A stretch of 18,814 bases of DNA from a virus: the UHGV virus genome UHGV-2198042. One strand, written 5' to 3'. Shown here in pieces: positions 2,190 to 18,664 of the stretch; positions within the stretch are counted from its first letter, which is position 1, and each line of letters starts with the position of its first letter. The notes under the pieces were generated by a model, which saw nothing but the letters and a program-made list of their open reading frames with translations, did not search any database and had not been told where the DNA came from. A program made the position numbers and the translations under genes.

Positions 2190-2851
2190 GCTCCAACATC
2201 GAACCCGCCGATGTATTCGTTATCCATATCAAACCCAAAGAATTTAGAGCCTTCTGACGGTGTTTCTACCGAAGGCGTTTCAACATCACCGGCCCATACG
2301 CCAGCTGATTTAACGGTGAGATAGCCCTGTTTGATAGCGGCGATCAGTTCGAGAGACACATCAGAAATATCAGTTTCAGGGAAAACCCAGACCGAAATCG
2401 TCATGTCCTGGTTGTCGACGATCTGCATCCTCAGGCCTGAGCCTGCGGTAGCAGCGTCAAGGATGGGAGGCAGAGAGTCGTTCCGACCGTCCCAGTTGTT
2501 GATAGCGATTTTCGCTTTCAGAATGATGCGGTACGTCTCATCGCTTAGCGTCGTATAGCCAGAATCAGGATCATATGGCCCTTGCCAGATGCCCTGGTCA
2601 TACCCAAGCCCGTCAGTGTCCAAGCTGAAATAAACTCCGCTAATTGGCTGGCTGACTATGCGACTGCGTCCGATCCACAGACCGAGGATGTCGAGCTGTA
2701 CACCGACAGCAGTATCGATATCGAAGGCTGTTATAAGCCCTGACATAGTGCTGGACACATCAATCAGCGGGCAGGTGCTCAGATCTATATGGTCAAAAAA
2801 GAGTGGCTTGGTAGCGTGGTAGTTAGTGATCAGTTCGGTGTATTTGCTCAT
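2171..2851 (-). CDS. baseplate protein (P2 gpI / Mu gp48-like)
   Basis: 226 aa ORF between the baseplate J-like gene and the tail fibre gene, with overlapping stop/start; assignment by synteny and size. Confidence 0.6.
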   Translation of the reverse strand: MSKYTELITNYHATKPLFFDHIDLSTCPLIDVSSTMSGLITAFDIDTAVGVQLDILGLWIGRSRIVSQPISGVYFSLDTDGLGYDQGIWQGPYDPDSGYTTLSDETYRIILKAKIAINNWDGRNDSLPPILDAATAGSGLRMQIVDNQDMTISVWVFPETDISDVSLELIAAIKQGYLTVKSAGVWAGDVETPSVETPSEGSKFFGFDMDNEYIGGFDVGAWGTIL

Positions 2852-4047
2852 GAGGTCACCGTGATACTGATATTCGCGGTGCTACAGGACGCTGAAGCAT
2901 CATAGGCAATATCAATGTTTGATGCCGATACGCTGCCAGACGACTTACCGATCAGCAGGTCGGTAATATCGTAATAGCGGGCATTCCCGCCGCTCACAAC
3001 GCCGAGGTTTGCCGGGGAATAAATACGGCTCAGCAGAACGTCGTCGCCAATTGTTAGGCCATTTATATAATCGGCAACAGCCTGTTTAATCTGCTCGCCG
3101 ATTTGAGAGGTATAGCCGGTAAAAACTTTCAGGGTAATGGCTACGAAAATTGGCACATCGGTAGAGCGCGAAAAACTGATGACGTGAGGATTACCATAAG
3201 TATCCGGCACTGTGACAGAAGTTTTACCGTAAGTTGCGGTTCCCTGCCCTTTATTCCCCCTGATGGTCTGGGCTATCTCGGTAACATCCCCTCCATCGAC
3301 GATGGCGGAAATAGAGTGTGGCGGCAGCCCGTTGCTGTCGGTTGCCCCAGTATCGTTCTTATATAGTTTGTGACGTGTCACGCCAGCAACATTAGCGATA
3401 GCACCGTCGACACCTTCAAACGGTGTGATCGATGGTAGCGCGACGCTTTGCCCCTGCCGAATGCGCAGCTCTGCGTCGGTTTCGGCTGGTGAACCGACAG
3501 TAGCCGCAACTGGATTGGTTACCGACACCCAACCTCGGGTCGGGGTGTTGATAGTGGTAATAGTCCCGGCCAGCGCCGCAACCGAACCGCTATTCGCACA
3601 TGTGGCCGTCACCAGCACAGTACCATCAACGCCGATCGCTACACTTGCGGGAAAATTCCAGATAATGCCGTTTTTATCCCGTGCGGAGCCATTCGTGATA
3701 GTCGTGCCTGCCGTACCGGTTAACAGAAGGTCAGCAGTAGAGTTTGTCGCTACTTTTCGCGTGATCCCGTTAATTTTCACATTGCTGCTAAGCGCTGCGG
3801 CCTGCGCTGTCGTCGGTGAAAAAGAGTTGTAGATCCCGATAGCGGTGTTGTTAGCGTCATGCACGGCAAGAGCCACCAGCGCGACCATCTGCCCGTCTTT
3901 GCTGTCTGGTTCGAGGTAGGCATCACTACCGTAAATCTGCCTGAAATAGCTGGTCAGTGTATCTAGGATTGTCTGGTAATCAGGCGCACTAATCCCCTGG
4001 GCGGTTACCGTTGCCGATAGCCCCAGCGTGTCGAGGTTCAAAGCCAT
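2848..4047 (-). CDS. baseplate J-like protein (P2 gpJ / Mu gp47-like)
   Basis: 399 aa; size, composition and synteny (after the gp25/W-like gene, before the gpI-like gene) fit baseplate J-family wedge proteins. Confidence 0.7.
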   Translation of the reverse strand: MALNLDTLGLSATVTAQGISAPDYQTILDTLTSYFRQIYGSDAYLEPDSKDGQMVALVALAVHDANNTAIGIYNSFSPTTAQAAALSSNVKINGITRKVATNSTADLLLTGTAGTTITNGSARDKNGIIWNFPASVAIGVDGTVLVTATCANSGSVAALAGTITTINTPTRGWVSVTNPVAATVGSPAETDAELRIRQGQSVALPSITPFEGVDGAIANVAGVTRHKLYKNDTGATDSNGLPPHSISAIVDGGDVTEIAQTIRGNKGQGTATYGKTSVTVPDTYGNPHVISFSRSTDVPIFVAITLKVFTGYTSQIGEQIKQAVADYINGLTIGDDVLLSRIYSPANLGVVSGGNARYYDITDLLIGKSSGSVSASNIDIAYDASASCSTANISITVTS

Positions 4048-4401
4048 TTATGCCTCGCTTGTTACAGTCGTCTGGCCGTAGATTGTGTCAATGGAGGAAG
4101 TGAAGGTGACGCGACGGCTGGTGCCGTCATAATTGGTATCGAAGGAAAGAATCGACAGAACGCCCGGTGTATCCTGTATGCGTTCGCGTATAGCCAGGAT
4201 GTAGACATCTGATCGCTGCTTCCCAAGCACTGACTGAACATACGGCGTGCCTTCCGTCAGATCGAGAAACCACTGACCGCGCCACAGCTCGAAACGGGTT
4301 TTTACGGCCTGGGCGACACATTCCGGACTGTCGATAAGGAAAGTATCGTCACCCTGGCCGAAAGTGTAATCGCCTTCAGTATCTTCGCGACGGTATCGCA
4401 T
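4048..4401 (-). CDS. small baseplate protein (gpW/gp25 or Mu gp46-like)
   Basis: 117 aa ORF tightly coupled between the spike and J-like genes. Confidence 0.5.
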   Translation of the reverse strand: MRYRREDTEGDYTFGQGDDTFLIDSPECVAQAVKTRFELWRGQWFLDLTEGTPYVQSVLGKQRSDVYILAIRERIQDTPGVLSILSFDTNYDGTSRRVTFTSSIDTIYGQTTVTSEA

Positions 4402-5141
4402 TATTGCGGCCCTCCGGTAGTTCCCCCGCCAGTCTGTACTCCGCCATGTTTATGCGTGGCGACACTGATACCAGAAGCTGTTACGTCATTCGTTACCGTC
4501 ACCGGCCCAAGCATCGTCGCAGTACCGCCGCTTTCGCCCATTCCCTGAGACAAGTTGCCATTAATCGTTACGTTGCCGTTCAGCGTGATAGTCGGGGATG
4601 TGATTGTCGTTCCACCTTCAGCCGTAGCTGTAAGCTGGCCCGGTGTTTTAATGGTGATGTTATGTCCTGCGGCGACTTCTACAAACGCCGCACCATCATC
4701 GGTTCGCAGCTGCGCGGCGCTGGTACTGATACCGCTGATTTTCCGTGCTTGCGACTGTGGGCCAACGATGGCGAACGCATCAGATAAGTCATGCTGGCGC
4801 GGGTCGACGGTCTCCTGCACGCCGCCGCTCTGCCACCAGAAATCGATGCAACGGTCGGCAAAGAGCAGCAGGCACTCGTCGCCTTCTTTAACCGGAAAAG
4901 TCAGCGTACAACCGCCGCCACGCGGGAAGATAACCGGCACATCCACCAGCGGTTTTAATTCGGTGGAGCCATCGCCAACGATACCGCGAAGCGCTACCTC
5001 TACCGTGCAGGTAACAGTGTCAGGATCGAACGACTGAATGATGCCGGGCATCGCTACGCGCATCTGGGTAGACACCGAATCGGCAATGGCCTGCGCGGTC
5101 TGCTGCTCACCGCCGATCTGTGATTGAGTTGGAATTGGCAT
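4401..5141 (-). CDS. baseplate spike/hub protein (P2 gpV / Mu gp45-like)
   Basis: 246 aa; N-terminal region ...PLVDVPVIFPRGGGCTLTFPVKEGDECLLLF resembles the gpV OB-fold; Gly/Thr-rich C-terminus; G-rich RBS before the ATG. Confidence 0.7.
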   Translation of the reverse strand: MPIPTQSQIGGEQQTAQAIADSVSTQMRVAMPGIIQSFDPDTVTCTVEVALRGIVGDGSTELKPLVDVPVIFPRGGGCTLTFPVKEGDECLLLFADRCIDFWWQSGGVQETVDPRQHDLSDAFAIVGPQSQARKISGISTSAAQLRTDDGAAFVEVAAGHNITIKTPGQLTATAEGGTTITSPTITLNGNVTINGNLSQGMGESGGTATMLGPVTVTNDVTASGISVATHKHGGVQTGGGTTGGPQ

Positions 5142-5152
5142 AAAACCCCCAT

Positions 5153-5180
5153 AAAAAAACCAGCCGAAGCTGGTTTGGTA
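5153..5180 (-). terminator. intrinsic terminator-like hairpin (minus strand) upstream of spike gene
   Basis: Minus strand reads aaaccagc-TTCG-gctggttt followed by ttttat; 8-bp perfect stem with a UUCG tetraloop and a U-run. Confidence 0.45.
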
Positions 5181-5242
5181 TCAATTATCTCTTAGTAACT
5201 AAGCTACATCAGTGTGAAGTAAGGCTTTTCCGCTGCAATGGC

Positions 5243-5259
5243 ACACATTCACAATGTGT
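5243..5259. promoter_or_regulatory. 7-bp inverted repeat (acacatt-cac-aatgtgt), operator-like
   Basis: Perfect palindrome in the intergenic region about 105 bp upstream of the + strand small ORF; -35-like hexamers (ttgcaa, ttgaaa) nearby. Confidence 0.25.
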
Positions 5260-5363
5260 ATTAGGATATGTTTGCAACAAGTAAGCATTGAAAATCAATT
5301 TCAGCCATGAAGCCGCCATAGAGTGGACCTGCACCATCGCATTATTGACTACAGGAGTAACAA

Positions 5364-5654
5364 ATGGGATTTAGATTTCGTAAAAGAATCCGGATTGCGC
5401 CCGGACTCGCGATCAACATTAGTAAAAGCGGAGTAAGCACTTCAATTGGTGGTAAAGGTTCCACCATTAACATCGGGAAAAAAGGCGTAAAGATGACAAA
5501 TGGCCTTCCCGGCACGGGGCTGTCGCATACCACTAACCTTTACTCTCCCGGGAAATCGACAGAAAAAAAACAACTTACTCATAAGCAAAAAATAATTAGA
5601 AACATCCTGTTCGTAATTATTGTGTTTATTATAATTAAAGCTCAATATTTTTGA
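5364..5654 (+). CDS. DUF4236-like small protein with C-terminal transmembrane helix
   Basis: 96 aa; N-terminus MGFRFRKRIRIAPGLAINISKSGVSTSIGGKG... resembles DUF4236 proteins from memory; C-terminal ILFVIIVFIII hydrophobic stretch; RBS aggagt 6 nt before ATG; antisense to all neighbouring genes. Confidence 0.55.
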   Translation: MGFRFRKRIRIAPGLAINISKSGVSTSIGGKGSTINIGKKGVKMTNGLPGTGLSHTTNLYSPGKSTEKKQLTHKQKIIRNILFVIIVFIIIKAQYF

Positions 5655-5658
5655 CGCA

Positions 5659-5690
5659 TGCCCGCCTATCTGGCGGGCTATTTTACTTTT
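5659..5690 (+). terminator. intrinsic terminator of the small + strand ORF
   Basis: gcccgcc-tatct-ggcgggc 7-bp GC stem followed by tattttactttt, starting 5 nt after the ORF stop; overlaps the stop codon of the convergent 296-aa gene. Confidence 0.55.
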
Positions 5691-6568
5691 CGGCAGTCGT
5701 ATGTTGCATACTGGCGCGGCGCGTCTATGCTGGCCTGCAACCACTGTGCGTTGAGAATAGCTTTTCCGTTGCGCTTGATGTACTCAAGCCCAACCCAGCG
5801 GCCGGGTTGATTAGTGGCAGCCATCCACTCCATCTTGATGTTATCCGGTTCCCCTTTGGTGCTACCACCAGAGCCGATTGGGCTAATTTTTTGCGTCTCT
5901 GGTTTTGCGCCATTAATTCTGGCCCAACCATCAGCAGAAGACAGATCAATCGTATAAGGACCACAGACTGTTTTGTAATTCACGCCAAGCTTTTCGTTAC
6001 TGTGAACATTACTACTTTTCTCGTAATCAGCCTTGGCTACGTCGTTCATTTTTTGATAGATGGCAGGTTGCTTCAGCGATAACTCATTTAGCTGTTTTAC
6101 AAAATTTTCTCGTGAAACCTCTGCAAGCCCCATGGGTTTTCTATCAATGATATAATCATCATAAATCTTTAATACAACAGCCGAAGAAGAAAGTTTCTTA
6201 GCTAAATCATTTACAAAATTGAGATAATTTAGCTGAGAATTATCTCTTACATCGATAGCCCTAACTCCACCTGTGCCGTACTCATGATATGCAGCATAAA
6301 AAGCTGGTATATTCTCCGGCTTTTTATTGATTGCCTTAATCAACCCGTCAGGACCACAGATCTCGCCACTCCAGTCAATTAGTGACTTCCCTTTAGATTT
6401 CCATGTCTGACAATCATCTGTCGATAAAATTACTATCGGCTGCCATCCTGGACGTCTTTTGTACTCAGCGTTCTGCGCGGAATTAAAGCCTGCACTCGCG
6501 CCCCCGGATAAGAGCAACCCGGAAAGAAAAAGTGCGCTATATCGAATTCCGTTCTTATTTGTACCCAC
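5678..6568 (-). CDS. secreted/periplasmic protein of unknown function (signal peptide)
   Basis: 296 aa; GTG start 7 nt after an AGGAGG RBS and directly after the upstream gene stop; N-terminus MGTNKNGIRYSALFLSGLLLSGGASA/GF is signal-peptide-like; AT-rich relative to flanking tail genes; shares a 17-residue motif with the tape-measure protein. Confidence 0.65.
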   Translation of the reverse strand: MGTNKNGIRYSALFLSGLLLSGGASAGFNSAQNAEYKRRPGWQPIVILSTDDCQTWKSKGKSLIDWSGEICGPDGLIKAINKKPENIPAFYAAYHEYGTGGVRAIDVRDNSQLNYLNFVNDLAKKLSSSAVVLKIYDDYIIDRKPMGLAEVSRENFVKQLNELSLKQPAIYQKMNDVAKADYEKSSNVHSNEKLGVNYKTVCGPYTIDLSSADGWARINGAKPETQKISPIGSGGSTKGEPDNIKMEWMAATNQPGRWVGLEYIKRNGKAILNAQWLQASIDAPRQYATYDCRKVK

Positions 6569-7636
6569 TTAATTTCCTCCTGAGCGAGCTATAGTCGACT
6601 GGCTAATCAGGTCACGAGCCCCACGCGCAAAACACATCAAATCCATGTACCACGCCTGACCTCTGGTGTCACCAGTATAATCGATAGCTTTGACGATATA
6701 AACGCCATCTGTCGCAATGCTGGCAGCCTGTGACGTTGTGCCGGTCAGTACGCGGTTGCCGTTCTCTTCTGTTTCGGTGATGCGACCGGGCGACTGTGCT
6801 ATTTCGCTATTACCGAGCGCGGCGCGGTACACCGAAGCCTGATCGAGCTGGATAAGACCATTAATACGGATGTTTGGGTTTATCAGGCACCGCACGTTTA
6901 CTCCGCCGCCCATCGTTTGTTGCGGCATACCGATCAGGCCAGTATCGGCATTCAACACAATGGCTTCGTGAATATATTTATCCTCCGGCACCATCTGGAC
7001 CTGACCATCCACCAGCTGCCATGTCGCTTTGCACTGCGCAGCAATATTATCCATCACGTTACGGGTGGATGAATAAATCGCACGGCCACGAGGAAACACG
7101 GTATCAGGAAAGTCACCGGTAATGCCCTGCGTCACGCCGAACGCGTTGAAATCCTGCATAGTCGCCCGGTGCAGGTCCGCAACGGTATAACCAGCGGCAA
7201 GCGTGGTGATGGTAGTCGCGTAGAGGAACGCTTCGTGGTTACTGATGGCCTGAATCAGCACCCAGGAATCGGTGATGTTGTCCTTCCCGGTGACGGTGAA
7301 GCGAATATCACCGTCAAATATCAGGCCGTAGTTCTGACCGTTCACCTGCCCTACCTGGTCTGGTGAAATCTCCCGGGCGACACCAACCTGGCTCGCATCA
7401 ACATCCGGCGCAATACCGTCATACCCGGCAATGATGCGAATTTTTGCAAACTCCTGCCCCAGTATCTTGTTCGTGGTATCGGTCGAAAGGTTGTAAATTT
7501 TCACGTTCGCCACGCGTGGCCAGCGTGTGTCTGCCCACTCGATCTGGAACGTGACCTTAAAGTCAGACAGGGAAACGCCCTGCCCGTTCTGGTCCAACAG
7601 TTGCAGCTCAAAATGGCGCATCCAGTTAAGAGACAT
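6569..7636 (-). CDS. tail/baseplate protein (Mu gpP/gp44-like position)
   Basis: 355 aa ORF in the tail module between the tape-measure region and the spike; assignment by synteny only. Confidence 0.5.
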   Translation of the reverse strand: MSLNWMRHFELQLLDQNGQGVSLSDFKVTFQIEWADTRWPRVANVKIYNLSTDTTNKILGQEFAKIRIIAGYDGIAPDVDASQVGVAREISPDQVGQVNGQNYGLIFDGDIRFTVTGKDNITDSWVLIQAISNHEAFLYATTITTLAAGYTVADLHRATMQDFNAFGVTQGITGDFPDTVFPRGRAIYSSTRNVMDNIAAQCKATWQLVDGQVQMVPEDKYIHEAIVLNADTGLIGMPQQTMGGGVNVRCLINPNIRINGLIQLDQASVYRAALGNSEIAQSPGRITETEENGNRVLTGTTSQAASIATDGVYIVKAIDYTGDTRGQAWYMDLMCFARGARDLISQSTIARSGGN

Positions 7637-7638
7637 TT

Positions 7639-7944
7639 CTACTCCTGTACGAAAATGAGGTGGCTGTATGTGCCGAGGTTGGTTTTGGTGGGCTCGTCTG
7701 GTGCGCCCTTATCGGTCGCCACCACCAGCGCGCCATCAATGCCAAGCTGTGGATATTGTCGTAAAAGGTTTACGCCGGTCAGTAGAGGTACGCCAGAGAG
7801 AAGCGCGGCACCGCCGCTATCCATCACGTCCATAATCCAGCCAGCCGCATCACGTCAGATGATCCTGAGTGTATACGTGGTATTGCCCAGCAAAACGCGG
7901 AACTGCTGATTGTCAGGAGAAAGCGGTATTTCGTTAAACTGCAT
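7639..7944 (-). pseudogene. small tail/baseplate gene split by a frameshift
   Basis: Two contiguous reading frames, 7855-7944 (MQFNEIPLSPDNQQFRVLLGNTTYTLRII*) and 7639-7833 (64 aa), overlap at about 7834-7860; together about 100 codons filling the gap between flanking tail genes. Confidence 0.4.
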
Positions 7945-7945
7945 A

Positions 7946-8548
7946 TCATCCCCCGAATGCTGATGTAACGCTTCCGCCCAGCTGGCTCAGCAAGGATTCG
8001 TTTGGCGGTGTAGTGGATTTCATCCCGGAATTCTGCACCGCCGATGTGCTGACGCCATCCTGCATATCTGATTTATCTGCAACGCTAACGCTCTGCGTCT
8101 GCGACATGATCACTTCACGCAGGGTAAGCGTGCAGTTCAGCACGTTCTCGCTGGTTTTATCCGTTGTCACCTCGATGGCTCGCACCAGCATATTGCTGTA
8201 AACCCGCTTTCCGGTCACTACATCGAACGGCACCCGAGAGGACTGGAGATCCAGTAGTTGCTGATAGGTCTCTTTCGGGCTAAGTCCGGCGCTGAGGCCG
8301 ATTGACGATGTATCAATGAAGTCCAGCAACGAACCGCCACCTGCGAAGCCGCATTCCATCGTGACTTCGCTGGGGCGCTTATACGCATGATCGGCGATGA
8401 AACCCGACGCGCTATTCGTTGTTGGCTTCTCCACCGGGTGCTCAGTAATTTCGAGCGCATCAGAATGCTTTTCGGAAACGACCACGCTGGGGATCAGCAG
8501 GCCAATTCGCCGGGATTGCTGGCGAAAAATCGCTGATAAAATATCCAT
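7946..8548 (-). CDS. tail protein of unknown function
   Basis: 200 aa ORF immediately downstream of the tape-measure gene; family not recognised. Confidence 0.45.
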   Translation of the reverse strand: MDILSAIFRQQSRRIGLLIPSVVVSEKHSDALEITEHPVEKPTTNSASGFIADHAYKRPSEVTMECGFAGGGSLLDFIDTSSIGLSAGLSPKETYQQLLDLQSSRVPFDVVTGKRVYSNMLVRAIEVTTDKTSENVLNCTLTLREVIMSQTQSVSVADKSDMQDGVSTSAVQNSGMKSTTPPNESLLSQLGGSVTSAFGG

Positions 8549-10185
8549 TATCTCGGTCCTGCGGGGAGTTGCTGGGTTAACTGTGAATTCACGCCCTTTT
8601 GACGGTCAACAGTCAAACGGGCAGCCTCGCGCGGATCGGAAACGCCGTGGATGTTAATGTTCGTTTCCTGCTGAATCACCGGGGCGCTGGTGGGCATATT
8701 GCTCATCACTTTCGGAATGTAGTTGCGCGTTTCCTGCGGCATTAGCCCCATTCCATAACGCTTAACATTCCCGATCCCCCAGTTATATGATGCCAGTGCT
8801 TTGCTAAGGTCTCCGCCGTTCTGCCGCAACAGCTGGCTGAGGTACTTAGCGGCTGCCTGAGCTGACTTTTCCGGGTCGAATACATCATTCCCACGCAGGC
8901 CCATGTCGCGCGCCGTGCCATCCATAAACTGAAACAGTCCTTTCGCGCCTGCGCCGGATATGGCGAACTGGTTACCACCCGACTCGGTGATCGCCACGCT
9001 TTTCAACAGGCCAGCTGGCAGCTGATAAAGCGACTCCAGTTTATTGAACATTGGCCCCATCCAGTCGAGCAATACCTTGCCCTGGGCCGTCGCCTGAGGT
9101 CGCTTAACCGACTGCGCTCGCTGCTCCGGCTCCAGTCCCATCTCCTGAATTTTTCGCTGGATTTGCTCATCAGTGAAAAAGTCTTTGCCGGGATTTTCCT
9201 TTCTCAGCGCCTCATATGCCTGCTGCCTTTCAGGTACGATATTGCTGCCTATACCGCCAATCGACGCCATTTCTTCACTGGTGGTCGGCGTATTGTTGGC
9301 AGGAATGAACATAAGCAACCATGGATTCTTGATTGCCAGCTGTGCGATCCCCTGCGCCAGCTTACCCAGCCCACCAATAGAGCCGCCAATTGCCTTACCA
9401 AGCCCCATAAATCCGGCGACAAGTCGCCCGATGCCAGTGAGCATGGAGACCAGCTTCGCACCAGCCAGAAAGCCAAACAGGATGGTGAGCGTATTTTTCC
9501 AGCCGCCGAGGTTGTCCTTGAGCTCCAGAAACTTATCGCGCAGCCACTTGAACACCTTCTTTGCCTGCTCAATTTCTGGCTGCCATTTGGACCAGTCAAT
9601 CAGGCTTTTACCGCCCTCTTTCCACGTCTGGTAATCGTCGTACAGCAATCCGATCGCCAGAATCAGTGTGGTGATAATTCCAATCGGGGATTTCAGGAAC
9701 GCAGAATTAAGCAGACGCCATGCGACCAGTAGAGCACCGAATATTTTCAGCAGATTTTTACTGCCATCGTCAAGACGCTTCCACCAGTCGATGACAGAGC
9801 CAGCGCCCTGTATCAGCCGCCACGCCATTCTCGTGAATGCGTTCGCAAGCCAGATCACGCCTTTAATAACTCTGGTCAGCGTCTCTTCAATCTTCGGGAA
9901 ATTGTCGAGGATGCGCCGCCGCAGGCTGTCCAGCGAACCAGCCAGGCCACCAGCGAGGTTTGAGCCGATCTTGTCCCGCATGATGCCGAACAGCGACGTA
10001 AGCCCGCGCATGGACGTCATGAATTTGTTGGACTGAACAGCCGCTTTATCAGCGTTGAACCCTGTCTTTTGCAGCATCGACTGGTAATCGGCGGTAAAGC
10101 CATTCATGCCGCGCCGCATCGCCATCAGCGTGTTTTCATCGATGCCAAGCATCTGCGCGTATTGTTTCGCGCGGTAATACGGCAT
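8548..10185 (-). CDS. tail tape-measure-like protein with C-terminal lytic transglycosylase (SLT) domain
   Basis: 545 aa; several Gly/Ala-rich hydrophobic segments; C-terminal ESGGNQFAISGAGAKGLFQFMDGTA...ASYNWG resembles SLT-family transglycosylase motifs; position before the baseplate genes. Confidence 0.65.
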   Translation of the reverse strand: MPYYRAKQYAQMLGIDENTLMAMRRGMNGFTADYQSMLQKTGFNADKAAVQSNKFMTSMRGLTSLFGIMRDKIGSNLAGGLAGSLDSLRRRILDNFPKIEETLTRVIKGVIWLANAFTRMAWRLIQGAGSVIDWWKRLDDGSKNLLKIFGALLVAWRLLNSAFLKSPIGIITTLILAIGLLYDDYQTWKEGGKSLIDWSKWQPEIEQAKKVFKWLRDKFLELKDNLGGWKNTLTILFGFLAGAKLVSMLTGIGRLVAGFMGLGKAIGGSIGGLGKLAQGIAQLAIKNPWLLMFIPANNTPTTSEEMASIGGIGSNIVPERQQAYEALRKENPGKDFFTDEQIQRKIQEMGLEPEQRAQSVKRPQATAQGKVLLDWMGPMFNKLESLYQLPAGLLKSVAITESGGNQFAISGAGAKGLFQFMDGTARDMGLRGNDVFDPEKSAQAAAKYLSQLLRQNGGDLSKALASYNWGIGNVKRYGMGLMPQETRNYIPKVMSNMPTSAPVIQQETNINIHGVSDPREAARLTVDRQKGVNSQLTQQLPAGPR

Positions 10186-10291
10186 GTTGTTGAGCTTTTG
10201 CCCAACCCGCCCTGATAGCTGCCTGTGTGGCGTTTAAATCTTTCAGGTACTCACGGGCAAACAGCTCTTGTTTGTCGGTGAGCTTTGCCAT
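10136..10291 (-). pseudogene. terminase small subunit N-terminal stub
   Basis: 51-codon frame MAKLTDKQELFAREYLKDLNATQAAIRAGW... matches the conserved terS N-terminal HTH motif, then loses similarity and stops; overlaps the tape-measure start in another frame; GGAG RBS upstream. Confidence 0.5.
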
Positions 10292-10531
10292 TGTTGGCTC
10301 CGTTTATCCGTTAAAAGGGATATCAGTTAAGTTATCCCGTGCAGGGTATAAGCCATTGTCGAGACCACTCATTGAATGGCCTCTGCAATAACCGATGTCT
10401 TTCCATCAGCCCGCCACCACAAAGAATCTTTTTTGCCATAAGGCTGGAGGTTCATCTTTCAGTGGCTGCCAGTGTTATTTCCCCACTTACTGGCTTGGGT
10501 TGCTTCGTGGTACTGCCGTAACTGGTGGTGC

Positions 10532-10551
10532 ACAGATTTAGTTAAATCTGT
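10532..10551. promoter_or_regulatory. perfect 9-bp-arm palindrome acagattta-gt-taaatctgt
   Basis: Seen directly in the roughly 350-bp noncoding region between the 85-aa ORF and the terS stub. Confidence 0.25.
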
Positions 10552-10643
10552 TCTCGCCTGAACTATCTTTTACATACCCGGATTGTGGGGATGTAAATCA
10601 CGGTTTCATTATCAAGCCCACCCGTAGATGGGCTTTGTAATGG

Positions 10644-10901
10644 CTACTTCGCTTTTGCTTCCGCTCGCTTACGCCGGCGCTCTTCTTTCCTCTCGGCTTT
10701 TGCCATGTCCATGAATGCCTGCATGATCGAGTTCCGCATCATGTAGCTAACAAAGTGATGATTGACACAGCCGTTGAGGCGCAGCTGCTCGCCAAACTCA
10801 TCCACCGAGGCCAATGCTTCCCTCATGCCCTTCTCGCCTTTCATGAACTCTGAGAAGTCGCGCCCCGCTCTGGAGGCGCATTCAATGACACGATCACTCA
10901 T
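10644..10901 (-). CDS. hypothetical protein with basic C-terminal tail
   Basis: 85 aa ORF whose start overlaps the KilA-N gene stop (ATGA); C-terminus AKAERKEERRRKRAEAKAK; hairpin after the stop. Confidence 0.45.
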   Translation of the reverse strand: MSDRVIECASRAGRDFSEFMKGEKGMREALASVDEFGEQLRLNGCVNHHFVSYMMRNSIMQAFMDMAKAERKEERRRKRAEAKAK

Positions 10902-11395
10902 CCCGGAAGCCCGGGGATCGTAATCTGCAGCTGGTTAGCCAGGGAGTTAATCTCAGCGACCAACACTGGCTTCGTATAGCGCCATGCTGCCAGCCCTTGT
11001 CCGCAGAAGCTCGCCATGTCTTTCTTCTGGTCAAACTCATGACATTTCATGTTGAGCTGCGCACTTAAGCTGTTGCGATGCTGAAGTTCTCCGGTGAAGT
11101 AGTCATCGAGGACTTTATAGGCCGCGTACTTGAACCCGGGGTTTAACCAAGCCGCATAATCGTAAGCAACAAACTTCCCGCCATATGTTCCACCGTGTAC
11201 ACCGCGCTCAGTAAAAACCACAGATTCGTGGTTTTTCTCCAGCTCGGCTAAGAACTCTTTGGTCTGCTTGTTTCGCAGGTAGTGGTAAGGCGATTCAGAT
11301 TCACTTTTACCACTAGCTTTCCACATATCAGTGAGGCAGATCATGCCATCTTCACCGATACGAATTGGTTGATTGAAGAGGGTTAATGATTTCAT
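10898..11395 (-). CDS. KilA-N domain protein
   Basis: 165 aa; N-terminal LTLFNQPIRIGEDGMICLTDMWKASGK...YHYLRNKQTKEFLAELE fits the KilA-N DNA-binding fold pattern from memory. Confidence 0.55.
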   Translation of the reverse strand: MKSLTLFNQPIRIGEDGMICLTDMWKASGKSESESPYHYLRNKQTKEFLAELEKNHESVVFTERGVHGGTYGGKFVAYDYAAWLNPGFKYAAYKVLDDYFTGELQHRNSLSAQLNMKCHEFDQKKDMASFCGQGLAAWRYTKPVLVAEINSLANQLQITIPGLPG

Positions 11396-11509
11396 AGCGT
11401 GTACCTACTCTTTGAAATGAACCTTTGCCGCACAGGAAACCAGCCCACCGAGGCTCGCCAGCACTAACTGGTATCCTCAAAGGCCCATTCCAAAGGGGCA
11501 GGTTCGGTG

Positions 11510-11566
11510 TAAAAAACATGCGTTGCGGTACGCATTTATTGCAAAAAGCCCCGCATCGCGAGGCTC
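11510..11566 (-). terminator. tandem intrinsic terminators downstream of Rz
   Basis: Minus strand: agcctcgc-gat-gcggggct + ttttt, then atgcgt-accgca-acgcat + gtttttt. Confidence 0.5.
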
Positions 11567-11596
11567 ATTAAATGGACTTTGTGATTTGCAAAAAAA

Positions 11597-12064
11597 TTAT
11601 TTCAGGCATTGCGTCCTGATGTATTCCTGCAGGTAGTTAACCTGCGCGGTTATCTTGTCGATTCCACTTCGTAGACGGTAATAATTGAGTTCAGCATCTG
11701 CTGTAAGTCTTGGGCTTTCTCCATCGCCCATGCTGCTGGCTCCGGTCGTTGACTTTGCACAGGTGGCGGCGACTTGCAGGCGCTTACGGCCAGCAATGAC
11801 ATCGCTATGCAGACGCTCAATGGTTTCTTTCGCATCAGCCAGTTCTCCGGTGTATTTGGCATCCAGTGCAGCGACATCACGCTGGCGGGTCTGCATGTCT
11901 TTAATGGTGGCGGTCGCCAGGAGGAGTTTCTCAGTGGCCTTATCGCGCTGGTCTCTGTAAGTGATGGCGTTGTCGCGGTAGTGGTTCACGAAGAAAGCCA
12001 GTGCGCCGATTAACGCCAGCACCAGCAACTGCAGCCAGTAACGCTTAACCAGTGCGCTAATCAT
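11597..12064 (-). CDS. Rz: i-spanin Rz
   Basis: 155 aa; N-terminal TM helix then ...[18 protein letters not shown]...[20 protein letters not shown] closely resembles lambda Rz; start overlaps R stop. Confidence 0.85.
11650..11835 (-). CDS. Rz1: o-spanin Rz1 (embedded in Rz, +1 frame)
   Basis: Internal start [20 protein letters not shown] with a lipobox (LAVSAC) and Pro-rich mature region, fully nested in Rz as in lambda. Confidence 0.7.
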
Positions 12065-12510
12065 GACAGGAACAGAGCTCGCTCTGCCTTGCGGCGATTC
12101 GTGAGCCCCGGCATCACCTTTCCGCCTGATTTATTCCAGCGCAGAAATTCATCTGCCGCGCCTTTTATATCGCCAGCATTCAGCTTTTTCAGCAGTGTAG
12201 ATGTGGAAAGAGCACGCGACCCAACGTTGTAAGCGAACGACACCAGTGCGTCGAACTGGCCTTGTGTCAGCTTCACCCTGACAACTTTCAGCACGTCATT
12301 CTCATAACCAACAAGCCCTGTTTTCAGAAGCCTGTCAGCGGTTTGCTGGTCGATAGTCATACCGCGCTTTACTGGCTTTCCGTCAACCGGATGGGTCCAG
12401 CCATAGCCGATGGTCCACGGCGCATCTCCCGTTCCGGGGTCGGGGTAAGCAGTCAGCCGACAACCTTCAAATTTTTTTATCAGAGCAATTCCGTCAGGAC
12501 TGGTTTGCAT
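12061..12510 (-). CDS. R: endolysin, T4/P22-type lysozyme (GH24)
   Basis: From internal Met [16 protein letters not shown]... about 149 aa; ...[14 protein letters not shown]...[11 protein letters not shown] matches the P22 gp19-type lysozyme from memory; the ORF-track N-terminal extension overlaps the holin gene. Confidence 0.85.
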
Positions 12511-12817
12511 CGTCAACTCCCGCCTTTTTTGCTGCAAGTTTTTTAATAAGATTGCCGATCGAATCGGTGCCGATGTATCCAATAAAGACGCTGGCTATGT
12601 AGGCGAGGTTGCTGCTCAGGCCGATAAAGTCCAGAAGGTCACGAACGAACCAGGCAATCATCGCGCACATCAGCGCATCAATTAGCGTTTTTGTTACCGC
12701 GCCGCCGTTATAGCGACCACGCAGATACGCCATGATAAAAGCCAGCATTGCACCAATACCCTGCTCCTTGGCGGCAAGTAGCGCAGCGATGAAATCTTGT
12801 TTGTATGGCATTTTCAT
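12494..12817 (-). CDS. S: class I holin, lambda S-like (dual-start MKM)
   Basis: [39 protein letters not shown]... is near-identical in pattern to lambda S; GGAGG RBS; the ORF-track upstream start (12826) is probably not used. Confidence 0.85.
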
Positions 12818-13025
12818 AGGCCTCACCTCCGATTTTCCGGATGGTGCTGTGTGTGTGTTTGAAAAGGGTCAGGCTTCACGGGCTGGATTTATCAACAAAG
12901 CACGTAGCGGATGATTCCCGTGAGCCTGAAATTGATGAATATGTCTGAAATAACTAGACCATTAGTAAAACAACTCGATAAATGTGGTTAAATGAGACTA
13001 CGTTCTCACAACTTAATTAGTACCA

Positions 13026-13196
13026 ATGATTATCAAGCCCTGCCCCTACTGCGGAAAGTTAATTAACCCAGAATCACTTGTGTGTAGCCACTGCCGGATA
13101 GTGAATCCTTTTGTGAAGGCCAGCAGAAGAGAAAAAGCGAAGAATGTATTAGTAATCGCTCTCGTTGCTGCTTTTTTAATTTGGATGATTCTCTGA
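13026..13196 (+). CDS. small zinc-ribbon protein with C-terminal TM helix
   Basis: 56 aa below the ORF-track cutoff: MIIKPCPYCGKLINPESLVCSHCRIVNPFVKASRREKAKNVLVIALVAAFLIWMIL; CxxC...CxxC plus hydrophobic tail; no strong SD. Confidence 0.4.
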   Translation: MIIKPCPYCGKLINPESLVCSHCRIVNPFVKASRREKAKNVLVIALVAAFLIWMIL

Positions 13197-13633
13197 GTTG
13201 CCAGTTTTCAATGAAGATAATGCGGGCAAAAAAAGCCTGCTCGGACGAACAGGCATGAAAAATAACAATACCGTCAAGGAGGTGGCGCCGGGTGCCTCCC
13301 GGTGGAACAGCCCCAGCCGACTAGTTCCGCGCAAACAAACCTGGACAAAAAAGTTTGACTGGACGCCCCGCCGCATAGGGGGATTCACCACGAACCAAAA
13401 GATAAAATCATCCGGTGACCGGGGCAATATCTAACCGGAACTTTTCAGAATCACTTATTGTTTCCTGGAGAGTACATGAGCGTTGGTGAATTCACGTGAT
13501 GCTTTTGGATGAGCGCTGAACCCAAAGGTCAGTATTTTCACACAGCAATTTTGCAAAAAGCAGCGCCCATTCAAAACCAGGTCGCTTTCCAGTCACTCCG
13601 GGGAACCCATCATCGCAGACTGGAAAGCTTTTA

Positions 13634-13662
13634 CTGGAGCGGGCAAAGGAATCGAACCTCTG
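13634..13662 (-). tRNA. tRNA-like 3' fragment (T-arm plus acceptor-3', tRNA-Gly-like)
   Basis: Minus strand reads ...agaggTTCGATTcctttgcccgctCCA, resembling the 3' end of E. coli tRNA-Gly; no complementary 5' acceptor strand found upstream, so likely a relic. Confidence 0.3.
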
Positions 13663-13671
13663 ACGCGCAGC

Positions 13672-13926
13672 TTATTTCCAGCTTTCGCCATTTAAGGCTG
13701 AAAGCACTGTTTGATGTGTTACACCAAACATTCTCCCTAGCCCTCTGGCTCCATAAACCTTATGTCGTGGAATGTAGTTTTCTCTGATGAACTGGACGCT
13801 GTCCATTGTTAGCTTGCTCATACCATTCAGCTCACCAGCTACTAAGTAGCTAAGGTCAAATTTGGTTTTCTGAATGTGGCATGCAGAACATAGTAGTTGG
13901 CACTTTTCAACCTCAGCATAAAACAC
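13672..13926 (-). pseudogene. HNH endonuclease C-terminal fragment with HTH
   Basis: 84 aa starting at GTG directly after an in-frame TAG; contains CQLLCSACH (zinc-binding half of an HNH motif) and an HTH-like segment, but lacks the N-terminal catalytic part. Confidence 0.4.
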
Positions 13927-14133
13927 CTAATCTGAGTGATAGTGCATCTCGCTTACATTTGCTGATTTGGTGGAAGGGTCTATGTGGTCAAACTGAAGCG
14001 AATATTCGGATCCGCAACTCGCGCAACGACCACCCAACTTTTCCACGGTCTTAGCAAGCCTAGCCCTTCGATTAAGATAGTAATCTTTGCTCGGCATTTA
14101 CCACCTCTACCATTGGAGCTAAACCAGCATGTT

Positions 14134-14208
14134 TGGCGGGATAGCGTGGACTCGAACCACGATAAGAAGGTTAACAGCCTTCCGTAATGACCTTTATACG
14201 ACTGACCC
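14134..14208 (-). tRNA. tRNA-like element, anticodon GUU (Asn-like), probably degenerate
   Basis: 75 nt on minus strand: acceptor gggtcag, D-arm with A14 and GG, anticodon stem gaagg/ccttc with loop cuGUUaa, T-arm cgtgg-TTCGAGT-ccacg, 3' ctatccc-g-CCA; acceptor stem has 2 central mismatches. Confidence 0.35.
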
Positions 14209-14298
14209 AAATAAAAAAGCCACCGTTGCAACTTAAGAGTCACTAACGGCAGCTTATGCGAATAGTGTTGCTCATTTGCTCAATGATGTCAACACGTT

Positions 14299-14787
14299 CT
14301 ATGCTACATGTTTAATTTTCTCTACACGTTTCCGGTTTTTAAACGCACTATCCAGAACCGGGTAAATCATAAACAACGAGGCATTGAGGATTTCGTCAAC
14401 TTCCCGACGACAGGTTGCGAGCGATGGTTTTTGAATGCGCCCTCCGCCCCGGCATAACATCTTGCGAGGTCTTGCGACGCGATGATAGTAAGATGCAATG
14501 GCGTGCTTGGAAGATCCATGGGCGTAGTAGCTGAGGAGGATGCCAAAGGCTTTCTTGTCAATGTACATGACGGAATCGACGACCTGAGAAATCAACATTC
14601 CATCATCATCATTGCACATTGGCCTTGTCATAACTCTTCCCGGCTCTACGCTCTCCATGAACTTCGCTATTACGCTGCTCATGCGCTTTTCAAGACGACC
14701 TGAATAAACCCATGCCCCCCACAGTTCAAGCCAGCCATTCAGCCACTCGTGCTGCTCTTTGGTGAGGTTTAGTTCTCTTATGCCCAT
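14299..14787 (-). CDS. Q: late-gene antiterminator Q (non-lambda Q family)
   Basis: 162 aa ORF immediately downstream of ninH and upstream of the lysis cassette; several Cys/His; no similarity to lambda Q itself but the size fits small Q proteins (phage 21 type, from memory). Confidence 0.6.
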   Translation of the reverse strand: MGIRELNLTKEQHEWLNGWLELWGAWVYSGRLEKRMSSVIAKFMESVEPGRVMTRPMCNDDDGMLISQVVDSVMYIDKKAFGILLSYYAHGSSKHAIASYYHRVARPRKMLCRGGGRIQKPSLATCRREVDEILNASLFMIYPVLDSAFKNRKRVEKIKHVA

Positions 14788-18217: not shown

Positions 18218-18664
18218 ACCGGGCAACGAGTCGGTGATTTATGCGAAATGAAGTGGTCTGATATCGTAGATGGATATCTTTATGTCGAGCAAAGCAAAAC
18301 GGGCGTAAAAATTGCCATCCCTACAACATTGCATGTTGATGCTCTCGGGATATCAATGAAGGAAACACTTGATAAATGCAAAGAGATTCTTGGCGGAGAA
18401 ACCATAATTGCATCTACTCGTCGAGAACCGCTTTCATCCGGCACAGTATCAAGGTATTTTATGCGCGCACGAAAAGCATCAGGTCTTTCCTTCGAAGGGG
18501 ATCCGCCTACCTTTCACGAGTTGCGCAGTTTGTCTGCAAGACTCTATGAGAAGCAGATAAGCGATAAGTTTGCTCAACATCTTCTCGGGCATAAGTCGGA
18601 CACCATGGCATCACAGTATCGTGATGACAGAGGCAGGGAGTGGGACAAAATTGAAATCAAATAA
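18218..18664 (+). pseudogene. int: integrase C-terminal fragment (lambda Int residues about 209-356)
   Basis: Translation ...TGQRVGDLCEMKWSDIVDGYLYVEQSKTGVKIAIPT...HELRSLSARLYEKQISDKFAQHLLGHKSDTMASQYRDDRGREWDKIEIK* is near-identical to the lambda Int C-terminus from memory; upstream of about 18218 the frame is unrelated and hits a stop at 18140-18142. Confidence 0.85.

Follow-up and report, generated by a model that had tools for sequence, protein, structure and literature searches.

We have analysed UHGV virus genome UHGV-2198042, a stretch of 18,814 nt referred to below as the window, with a focus on positions 5142-6568, which lie between the baseplate hub and central spike genes. A preliminary sequence-only reading had placed there a secreted-protein gene and an antisense gene for a small membrane protein, inserted as a moron between hub and spike. 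Gene calls and profile matches bore out all four genes and their positions. The features are real, and the moron reading (moron in the sense of Juhala 2000 and Cumby 2012, PMC3594210) proved right in kind and wrong in anatomy. Positions 5142-6702 are probably an accessory locus of nested, moron type, which belongs to the late operon of a lambdoid prophage whose contractile-tail module is of the SEN34 type; in its architecture and its behaviour as a cargo hotspot, taken by themselves, our confidence is high. The locus comprises the following features.

4401-5141, minus strand: central spike gene, conserved, bordering the interval on the right (E 1.7e-41 for the Pfam spike N-terminal domain; Apex motif)
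5147-5176, minus strand: intrinsic terminator AAACCAGC-UUCG-GCUGGUUU with a U-run, its end 11 nt ahead of the spike ATG, right boundary of the slot (scan and conservation)
5177-5363, plus strand: non-coding upstream region of the DUF4236 cassette, with the ribosome-binding site GGAG ahead of the ATG
5364-5654, plus strand: DUF4236 gene, 96 amino acids (aa), antisense to the operon (Pfam PF14020)
5660-5678, plus strand: hairpin GCCCGCC-TATCT-GGCGGGC with a T-rich tail, predicted terminator of the DUF4236 gene and left end of the cassette (terminator scan)
5678-6568, minus strand: open reading frame (ORF) of 296 aa (gene 1), with its GTG start right behind the hub stop and a ribosome-binding site, GGAGG, upstream of the GTG
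5678-5974, minus strand: C-terminal 8-stranded beta-barrel domain of gene 1 (aa 199-296 and stop; PHROG 3443), a conserved resident gene of the module
5984-6487, minus strand: N-terminal all-helical domain of gene 1 (aa 28-195), AT-rich and variable (composition, comparison and AlphaFold model)
6488-6568, minus strand: GTG start and signal peptide of the 296-aa protein (alignment of the family)
6569-7636, minus strand: baseplate hub gene, conserved, bordering the interval on the left (PHROG 196 baseplate hub, E 8.8e-85)
6674-6702, minus strand: candidate promoter of sigma-70 type (TTTATA-17 nt-TATACT) in the 3' end of the hub gene (consensus scan)

The interval was compared in 102 loci encoding both hub and spike, drawn from 21 GTDB species representatives, 80 IMG/VR contigs, E. 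coli and phage records, and the window. Hub and spike had been expected to be neighbours in related modules, yet they were adjacent in 0/102 loci, and even the smallest interval (396-417 bp) still held a gene and a terminator. The gene following the hub encoded the barrel in 97 loci, as a short form in 84 and a long form in 13; the other five had a different C-terminus. The remaining DNA, from this post-hub gene to the spike ATG, is what we call the slot. It measured 55-2121 bp, with a guanine-cytosine (GC) content of 0.35-0.46 vs. 0.50-0.61 in the flanks, and it was empty (55-62 bp) in four of the 102 loci.

More than 30 cargo architectures were found in the slot. The antisense DUF4236 cassette was present in 24 of the 102 loci, an antisense EACC1-domain protein in nine, and two small secreted proteins in eight and seven, respectively. 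Other relatives carried Phd/Doc, a T5orf172 protein matching PADLOC PD-Lambda-1 (E 2.8e-82), PDC-S42 (PADLOC, E 1.7e-36), multi-gene stretches of 1.7-2.1 kb, or two-gene cassettes in which a 127-134-aa protein is paired with a 249-273-aa partner, neither of them matching Pfam or PADLOC. About two-thirds of the loci encoded at least one predicted secreted or membrane cargo protein. Conserved flanks enclosing diverse cargo that includes known defence systems are the hallmark of a defence hotspot as understood by Rousset et al. 2022, and this is the pattern displayed by the hub-spike interval. As a separate observation, the cargo of five loci (L017, L018, L022, L060 and L073) included coiled-coil proteins with a C-terminal transmembrane helix, a further family of small, tail-anchored proteins at this site.

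The base composition varied within the interval. The 1.4 kb had been described as AT-richer DNA, and its overall GC of 0.43 vs. 0.525 +/- 0.025 in the rest of the tail operon (500-nt windows) agreed with this; the drop was uneven, however. The coding part of the N-terminal domain (5984-6487) had a GC of 0.393 (z -5.2), with 0.357 at third codon positions, and the slot (5142-5677) had 0.412 (z -4.5), whereas the last 297 nt of gene 1 (5678-5974), coding for the barrel, reached a backbone-like, non-deviant 0.505 (hub 0.537, spike 0.574). Hence, the AT-rich DNA forms two blocks with backbone-like sequence between them. A composition unlike that of the neighbours, one mark of a moron, was thus found for the slot and the N-terminal domain and not for the barrel domain.

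Presence or absence between the same neighbours, another such mark, gave the same partition: it applied to the cassette (24/102) and to the fusion of N-terminal domain and barrel (13/102), but not to the barrel domain itself (97/102). The DUF4236 cassette co-occurred with short as well as long post-hub genes, and the long form with four other types of cargo. Because each occurs without the other, the two AT-rich blocks of the window are best seen as independent acquisitions. This does not fit the idea of one two-gene insert: the barrel domain is near-universal, while the N-terminal domain and the cassette vary independently. The sequence-only reading had named uniform possession of both genes by relatives as incompatible with it, and this was the case for one third of gene 1 and not for the rest. 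In the comparison with related tail modules that it had proposed as a check, relatives held other cargo or none, and the interval was never geneless.

Gene 1 itself is the resident barrel gene fused to a grafted N-terminal domain. The PHROG 3443 profile matched only residues 198-296 of the 296-aa protein (E 3.4e-34), vs. the full length of the short forms in relatives (E 1e-44 to 1e-45). The post-hub gene of Citrobacter phage Omnitron and of related E. coli prophages comprises a signal peptide and the barrel only (116-123 aa). Members of the family are likewise found directly behind the hub in Salmonella phage SEN34 (Brunovirus) and, from Klebsiella, in phage Mulock and further prophages. The short forms grouped into 79 clusters, all from Enterobacterales and all annotated as hypothetical. 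The long form inserts about 170 residues between signal peptide and barrel; it was represented by 18 full-length homologue clusters (43-99% identity) and has four conserved cysteines, two per domain, with C53 and C71 as the pair of the N-terminal domain. The barrel gene abuts or overlaps the hub gene (gap of 0-1 nt or overlap of 4 nt), and the barrel diverges much faster than the hub (56-73% vs. 88-100% identity). The 296-aa protein gave no Pfam or NCBIfam family match, and its best PADLOC hit (PDC-S15, E 0.024) was not meaningful.

The N-terminal domain, modelled by AlphaFold as helices over residues 35-185 (block-mean predicted local distance difference test score, pLDDT, of about 73-97), was missing from the short forms (84 loci) and rare elsewhere, with 15 representatives among 1.84 billion proteins; those inspected were mostly lipoproteins with another C-terminal domain. 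A megablast search of its DNA against 5,426 complete E. coli genomes gave no match. In the five loci without the barrel (L015, L055, L065, L076 and L108) the product of the post-hub gene is a lipoprotein; its N-terminal region is similar to this domain (27% identity to that of the window in L015), and its C-terminus is a different one. Since the PHROG 3443 barrel is swapped there for another C-terminus, the N-terminal domain behaves as a module with exchangeable C-termini.

Signal peptides were present in the short forms inspected and in the aligned long forms, and a lipobox ([ST]-G-C or similar) was found in 16 of 19 aligned long-form members. Although the family is lipoprotein-like, the window allele lacks the cysteine at +1 that defines a bacterial lipobox and has glycine in its place (LLLSGGASA-G; codons S-G-G at 6496-6504); the other exceptions have glycine (cluster P0001) and tyrosine (P0007). 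The glycine allele corresponds to P0001, a cluster of 81 sequences, so that it is an established allele and no private lesion. With the cysteine lost, the 296-aa protein of the window is probably periplasmic, either soluble or held by its signal anchor.

The second gene encodes a 96-aa protein that matched Pfam PF14020 over residues 3-55 (E 1.8e-20; 73.6 bits, cutoff 27) and is identical to RefSeq WP_000506880.1 in loci L002 and L003. In its AlphaFold model (pLDDT 80), six strands form a beta-meander (residues 7-60) that is joined by a linker to a C-terminal helix (73-95), and a C-terminal hydrophobic tail was found in 70 of 77 small DUF4236 homologues. The model suggests a tail-anchored inner-membrane protein. 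The cassette occurred in 19 of the 5,426 complete E. coli genomes, always in single copy and mostly 98-100% identical (90-95% in two records), and only 4 of the 53 E. coli genomes matching the region covered at least 80% of it. The upstream region 5177-5363 is conserved among cassettes, apart from indels of 11 nt and about 39 nt. We have considered a 15-nt palindrome within it (5243-5257) as an operator and rejected it, because most cassettes have a mismatch there and it is perfect only in the window and L003.

Small DUF4236 homologues at 44-59% identity were located in prophage tail-tip regions. Two of them occupied the same hub-spike slot in SEN34-type modules of Klebsiella and Hafnia prophages, and three were found in unrelated tail modules of siphovirus type: in a Leclercia lambda-like prophage the neighbours are the tape-measure gene and gpM, in Pseudomonas syringae gpK and gpJ, and in a metagenomic siphovirus the chaperone and tape-measure genes. 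C. difficile phage phiCD38-2 has a 213-aa DUF4236 protein at the chaperone-tape-measure position. That DUF4236 is always a tail-module gene was nevertheless rejected, since more distant members reside on a conjugative plasmid, in transposon-rich islands and in plain chromosomal contexts; proximity to tail genes is, among mobile elements, a tendency rather than a rule. There is essentially no literature on DUF4236, which is named in one paper that gives no function; structural and sequence searches with the 96-aa protein returned no relative of known function. For the two proteins together, searches of Pfam, PHROGs, NCBIfam and PADLOC yielded DUF4236 and PHROG 3443 only, and profile searches of PDB sequences found nothing.

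For both of the terminators proposed by the sequence-only reading, a terminator-like hairpin is present. A terminator scan by itself did not exceed chance (three sites vs. 2.2 expected), and the hairpins are credible because they are conserved across relatives. The one at 5660-5678 recurs within the conserved cassette sequence of each of the 24 loci with DUF4236. The pre-spike hairpin (5176-5157 on the minus strand) has a UUCG loop, is followed by a U-run and is separated from the spike ATG by 15 nt. The 102 loci yielded 59 unique sequences upstream of the spike, all of which contained at this place a GC-rich stem of 6-9 bp and T6-8, ending 11-19 nt before the spike ATG, and this included the empty-slot loci, SEN34 and Mulock. 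RNAfold energies were between -11 and -20 kcal/mol for 58 of the 59. As it is universal even where the slot is empty, the pre-spike terminator belongs to the frame and not to this particular cargo, which is where the earlier assignment did not hold.

At least five compensatory stem variants were distinguished (CCCGC/GCGGG, CCAGC/GCUGG, GCCGC/GCGGC, CUCGC/GCGAG and UCGCA/UGCGG), each type of cargo having a variant of its own, with CCAGC accompanying the DUF4236 cassette. This argues that recombination swaps the terminator along with the cargo. Possession of its own terminator, a further mark of a moron, is thus indicated on sequence evidence by both hairpins. A scan of 5142-6702 against Rfam found nothing.

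The promoter candidate lies about 105 nt upstream of the 296-aa ORF, and an identical TTTATA-17-TATACT site is present in the empty-slot Rahnella locus L013. Codon usage was compared among 96 unique hub genes (52-100% amino-acid identity). Thr321 was ACT in 95 of the 96 and ranked first in conservation among 71 fourfold-degenerate codons; TAT was used for both Tyr313 and Tyr320 in 95, whereas other Tyr and Thr codons were mixed. TATACT was kept in 94 of the 96 and the spacer codons varied. Such nucleotide-level constraint on top of coding is what a promoter predicts, and it is suggestive of a putative promoter at this site. Conservation of the hub protein, which also has a weak match to Pfam E217_GP41, drops past codon ~340, and its last ~12 codons vary jointly with the downstream gene.

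The window also encodes a candidate regulator of late transcription.

14299-14787, minus strand: Q-like antiterminator gene (PHROG 943, anti-termination protein Q-like, E 4.9e-90)

It is located upstream of the holin, endolysin, Rz and tail genes and on the same strand. SEN34, which combines lambdoid regulation with a contractile tail (PMC5261728), has the same order of Q, lysis and structural genes; the published work on SEN34 contains neither proteomics nor a moron analysis. Its Q protein had no tblastn match in Omnitron or the window, the Q of the window being of a different family (PHROG 943). In lambda, Q-modified RNA polymerase ignores intrinsic terminators. By the same behaviour, the hairpins described here would stop only transcripts from local promoters. 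Such an arrangement of terminators and local promoters is classic moron logic (PMC3594210). The stretch between the Q-like gene and the holin gene is in lambdoid prophages the usual late-promoter region; it contains an STnc100 small RNA (13224-13416, minus strand; Rfam 71.7 bits) and a tRNA-Asn(GTT) (14134-14208, minus strand), and 12826-14299 has low GC and small plus-strand ORFs without a family match.

The remaining genes of the tail and baseplate operon are listed here in transcription order.

8548-10185, minus strand: tape-measure protein with an SLT domain, first in the operon
7946-8548, minus strand: Dit-like protein, after the tape-measure gene
7639-7944, minus strand: plug gene, between the Dit-like gene and the hub
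4048-4401, minus strand: sheath-initiator-like wedge protein, after the spike (whose homologues in relatives bear the RefSeq name "phage baseplate assembly protein V")
2848-4047, minus strand: baseplate J, after the wedge gene and followed by tail fibre genes

The prophage is defective. Its tape-measure ORF (545 aa) is without the first ~120-190 codons, the match to the tape-measure profile beginning at position 195, and the sequence shared with intact relatives extends no further than 10206. Rz, endolysin, holin and two regulator-like genes (10644-11395) adjoin the truncated gene (region 8548-12826); because they abut it, the terminase, head, sheath, tube and chaperone genes are missing. Where three close relatives have TGG, the plug gene reads TGA at 7855-7857, a nonsense mutation (RIIWRD to RII*RD). 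Both cargo ORFs, that of the 296-aa protein and that of the DUF4236 protein, are intact, which is compatible with host selection; it is no proof, since most baseplate genes are likewise intact.

Four further observations were made along the element. A C-terminal integrase fragment (18248-18664, plus strand; positions 309-436 of 611 in the PHROG 1 profile) adjoins an O-like replication gene and is another sign of rearrangement or decay. The segment 645-1741, with tail-fibre and fibre-assembly genes, is inverted relative to Citrobacter phage Omnitron, the neighbouring baseplate genes being colinear, and may be an invertible host-range segment. Positions 1-450, beyond the tail-fibre assembly gene, have a very low GC (0.32-0.40) and are possibly a prophage end or additional cargo. 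Finally, relatives have about 240 bp of extra DNA between the spike stop and the sheath-initiator gene (8225-8465 in L030/L031; 5105-5242 in SEN34, locus L007), with a 45-aa ORF in SEN34 and nothing extra in the window (4401-4415); this gap is a second small variable slot of the same operon.

Taken together, these data show a two-layered organisation. A family-wide layer consists of the promoter-like site in the hub 3' end, the Sec-exported barrel gene (PHROG 3443) abutting the hub, and the pre-spike terminator. A second layer is exchanged by recombination between the conserved flanks and has two parts here: an AT-rich, lipoprotein-type helical domain fused ahead of the barrel, giving the 296-aa protein, and a convergent cassette coding for the putative tail-anchored inner-membrane DUF4236 protein with its own terminator. 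During lytic growth, Q-modified RNA polymerase would pass both hairpins, so that the spike and the downstream baseplate genes are made, and late transcription would run antisense over the DUF4236 gene. In the lysogen, the local promoters alone would fire, and the terminator would insulate the structural genes. Both products would reach the cell envelope, where they would most likely protect the lysogen at the phage injection step, like other small envelope proteins from tail operons; superinfection exclusion as the function of the two proteins is a tentative proposal, in which we have limited confidence. As for the layout announced by the sequence-only reading, foreign-composition cargo with terminators does sit in a late operon and is different or absent in relatives; the arrangement is layered, however, and no promoter was found for the DUF4236 gene. 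That the two proteins are not structural parts of the tail agreed with our results, as both genes encode envelope proteins.

Several points weigh against this interpretation. The 102 loci are phylogenetically non-independent, being mostly closely related enterobacterial prophages. A plus-strand consensus promoter scan of 5177-5363, upstream of the DUF4236 gene, found none. Neither protein belongs to a PADLOC, NCBIfam or solved-structure family of known function, and the distant DUF4236 members on a plasmid, in transposon-rich islands and on chromosomes lie outside tail modules. Moreover, since the barrel gene abuts or overlaps the hub gene, it is also a late gene and may serve the phage rather than the lysogen.

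This last point leads to the main competing explanation, namely that the post-hub secreted protein, short or long, is a life-cycle factor of the late genes and that only the DUF4236 cassette is true cargo. As a periplasmic protein it could, for example, neutralise the phage's own tail transglycosylase, block receptors on debris or tune lysis. The SLT transglycosylase domain of the module's tape-measure protein would suit such a role, as would a backbone-like gene that abuts the hub gene and is retained in 97/102 loci, down to about 57-63% hub identity (SEN34, Mulock). Nonetheless, we consider this explanation unlikely: the replacement of the barrel by a different lipoprotein C-terminus in five loci and its far faster divergence relative to the hub (56-73% vs. 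88-100%) are hard to reconcile with it, the gene is bracketed by a promoter-like site conserved at synonymous positions and by a dedicated terminator, and exported proteins would be unable to join cytoplasmic virion assembly.

Lysogenic conversion is decidedly less likely. Here the proteins would act on the host environment (serum or stress resistance, adhesion; cf. lambda Bor and Lom) and not on phages. Morons with such roles are known from tail regions (PMC3594210), both proteins are envelope-targeted and the long form falls in a lipoprotein family. In relatives, however, known anti-phage systems as well as toxin-antitoxin pairs are found in the slot; across several types of phage, DUF4236 relatives gather around tape-measure and tail-tip genes; and searches of Pfam and NCBIfam gave no match to Bor, Lom or another virulence family.

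A single foreign two-gene moron, dropped with its own promoter and terminators between an otherwise adjacent hub and spike, is very improbable. The low GC, the convergent genes, the hairpins and the coverage of the region by just 4 of 53 matching E. coli genomes speak for it, but the comparative data already contradict it: hub and spike were adjacent in 0/102 loci, the barrel domain and the pre-spike terminator occur in nearly all relatives, empty sites included, the barrel has a backbone-like GC of 0.505, and the two variable parts assort independently. That the ORFs are decaying, functionless remnants of a dead prophage is scarcely credible, for the truncated tape-measure gene, the missing head, sheath and tube genes, the plug nonsense codon and the lost lipobox cysteine are set against 18 full-length homologue clusters (43-99% identity) with conserved cysteines and core residues, an 81-sequence cluster with the glycine allele, a DUF4236 protein identical in many genomes and belonging to a large family of conserved architecture, and signs of purifying selection that are already visible.

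The nested moron locus may be extended to a broader, speculative proposal, which we regard as unlikely. Tail-anchored DUF4236 proteins would be a widespread injection-blocking class of superinfection-exclusion proteins that has settled repeatedly beside the tape-measure and tail-tip genes of unrelated prophages, both myovirus and siphovirus; the PHROG 3443 barrel would be their periplasmic counterpart, and the frame of hub promoter, barrel and terminator would be a conserved landing pad, retained by SEN34-type phages for carrying and swapping envelope defences; the barrel, with or without the lipoprotein domain, would target the incoming tail tip or its transglycosylase. SEN34-type prophages are common in E. 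coli, Salmonella, Klebsiella, Citrobacter and Serratia. If the interpretation is correct, their hub-spike interval would be a compact hotspot, easily recognised by its conserved flanks and ever-present terminator, that could be mined for new envelope-acting anti-phage genes. It would also provide a first functional lead for the orphan families DUF4236 and PHROG 3443, and an example of a moron as a fixed promoter-gene-terminator frame that receives swapped cargo.

Among known systems, HK97 gp15 offers a close parallel. This moron of the YebO family is a superinfection-exclusion protein encoded in the tail operon at the chaperone-to-tape-measure position, and is believed to keep an incoming tail from forming a channel across the inner membrane (PMC3594210). 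The DUF4236 gene is likewise an accessory element of foreign composition in a lambdoid tail operon, coding for a small putative inner-membrane protein and having putative transcription signals of its own, and its relatives in other phages occupy the same chaperone-tape-measure position. Unlike gp15, its product has no sequence relationship by Pfam to that protein: a Pfam scan of the 96-aa protein returned DUF4236 only and not YebO, and HK97 was not among the 49 phage records with tblastn matches. The predicted topology is also reversed (C-terminal anchor, cytoplasmic beta-meander), the gene lies antisense in its operon, and exclusion is its proposed function.

[quoted passage not shown] Their sequences are unrelated to those of the window, and their host-interaction roles are not indicated here. 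The long-form family resembles the receptor-blocking outer-membrane lipoproteins T5 Llp and phi80/N15 Cor, whose genes adjoin tail genes, in that its members are lipoproteins encoded amid the tail-tip genes of a temperate phage; in contrast, the 296-aa protein has no Pfam or NCBIfam family match and the window allele is without the lipobox cysteine. As a small two-cysteine periplasmic protein with a probable disulfide, from a phage whose tail has a cell-wall hydrolase (SLT), the barrel protein recalls T4 Spackle, PliC/MliC and Ivy. MliC is also an 8-stranded barrel. We have rejected a link to the Tai and Tab tail-assembly defences, whose genes are near packaging genes and are unrelated.

At the level of the whole locus, the nearest counterparts are found in P2-like phages, whose old/tin and Z/fun loci are hotspots for antiviral systems (Rousset et al. 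2022, PMC9122126); one P2 hotspot also adjoins baseplate and tail genes (bioRxiv 10.1101/2024.10.15.618418). They share with the hub-spike interval the conserved structural flanks, a low-GC cargo that is highly variable and has known defence systems among its members, and recombination as the mode of exchange. They differ from it in that here lambdoid regulation is combined with a SEN34-type contractile tail, the position is between hub and spike, the slot lies within a frame made up of a resident gene for a secreted protein and a conserved terminator, and the cargo consists mostly of small envelope proteins. Morons and phage-borne defence hotspots are already well established, and current concepts remain unchanged; within them, the locus adds a new and well-delimited case of an accessory or defence hotspot borne by a phage, here with two orphan envelope proteins.

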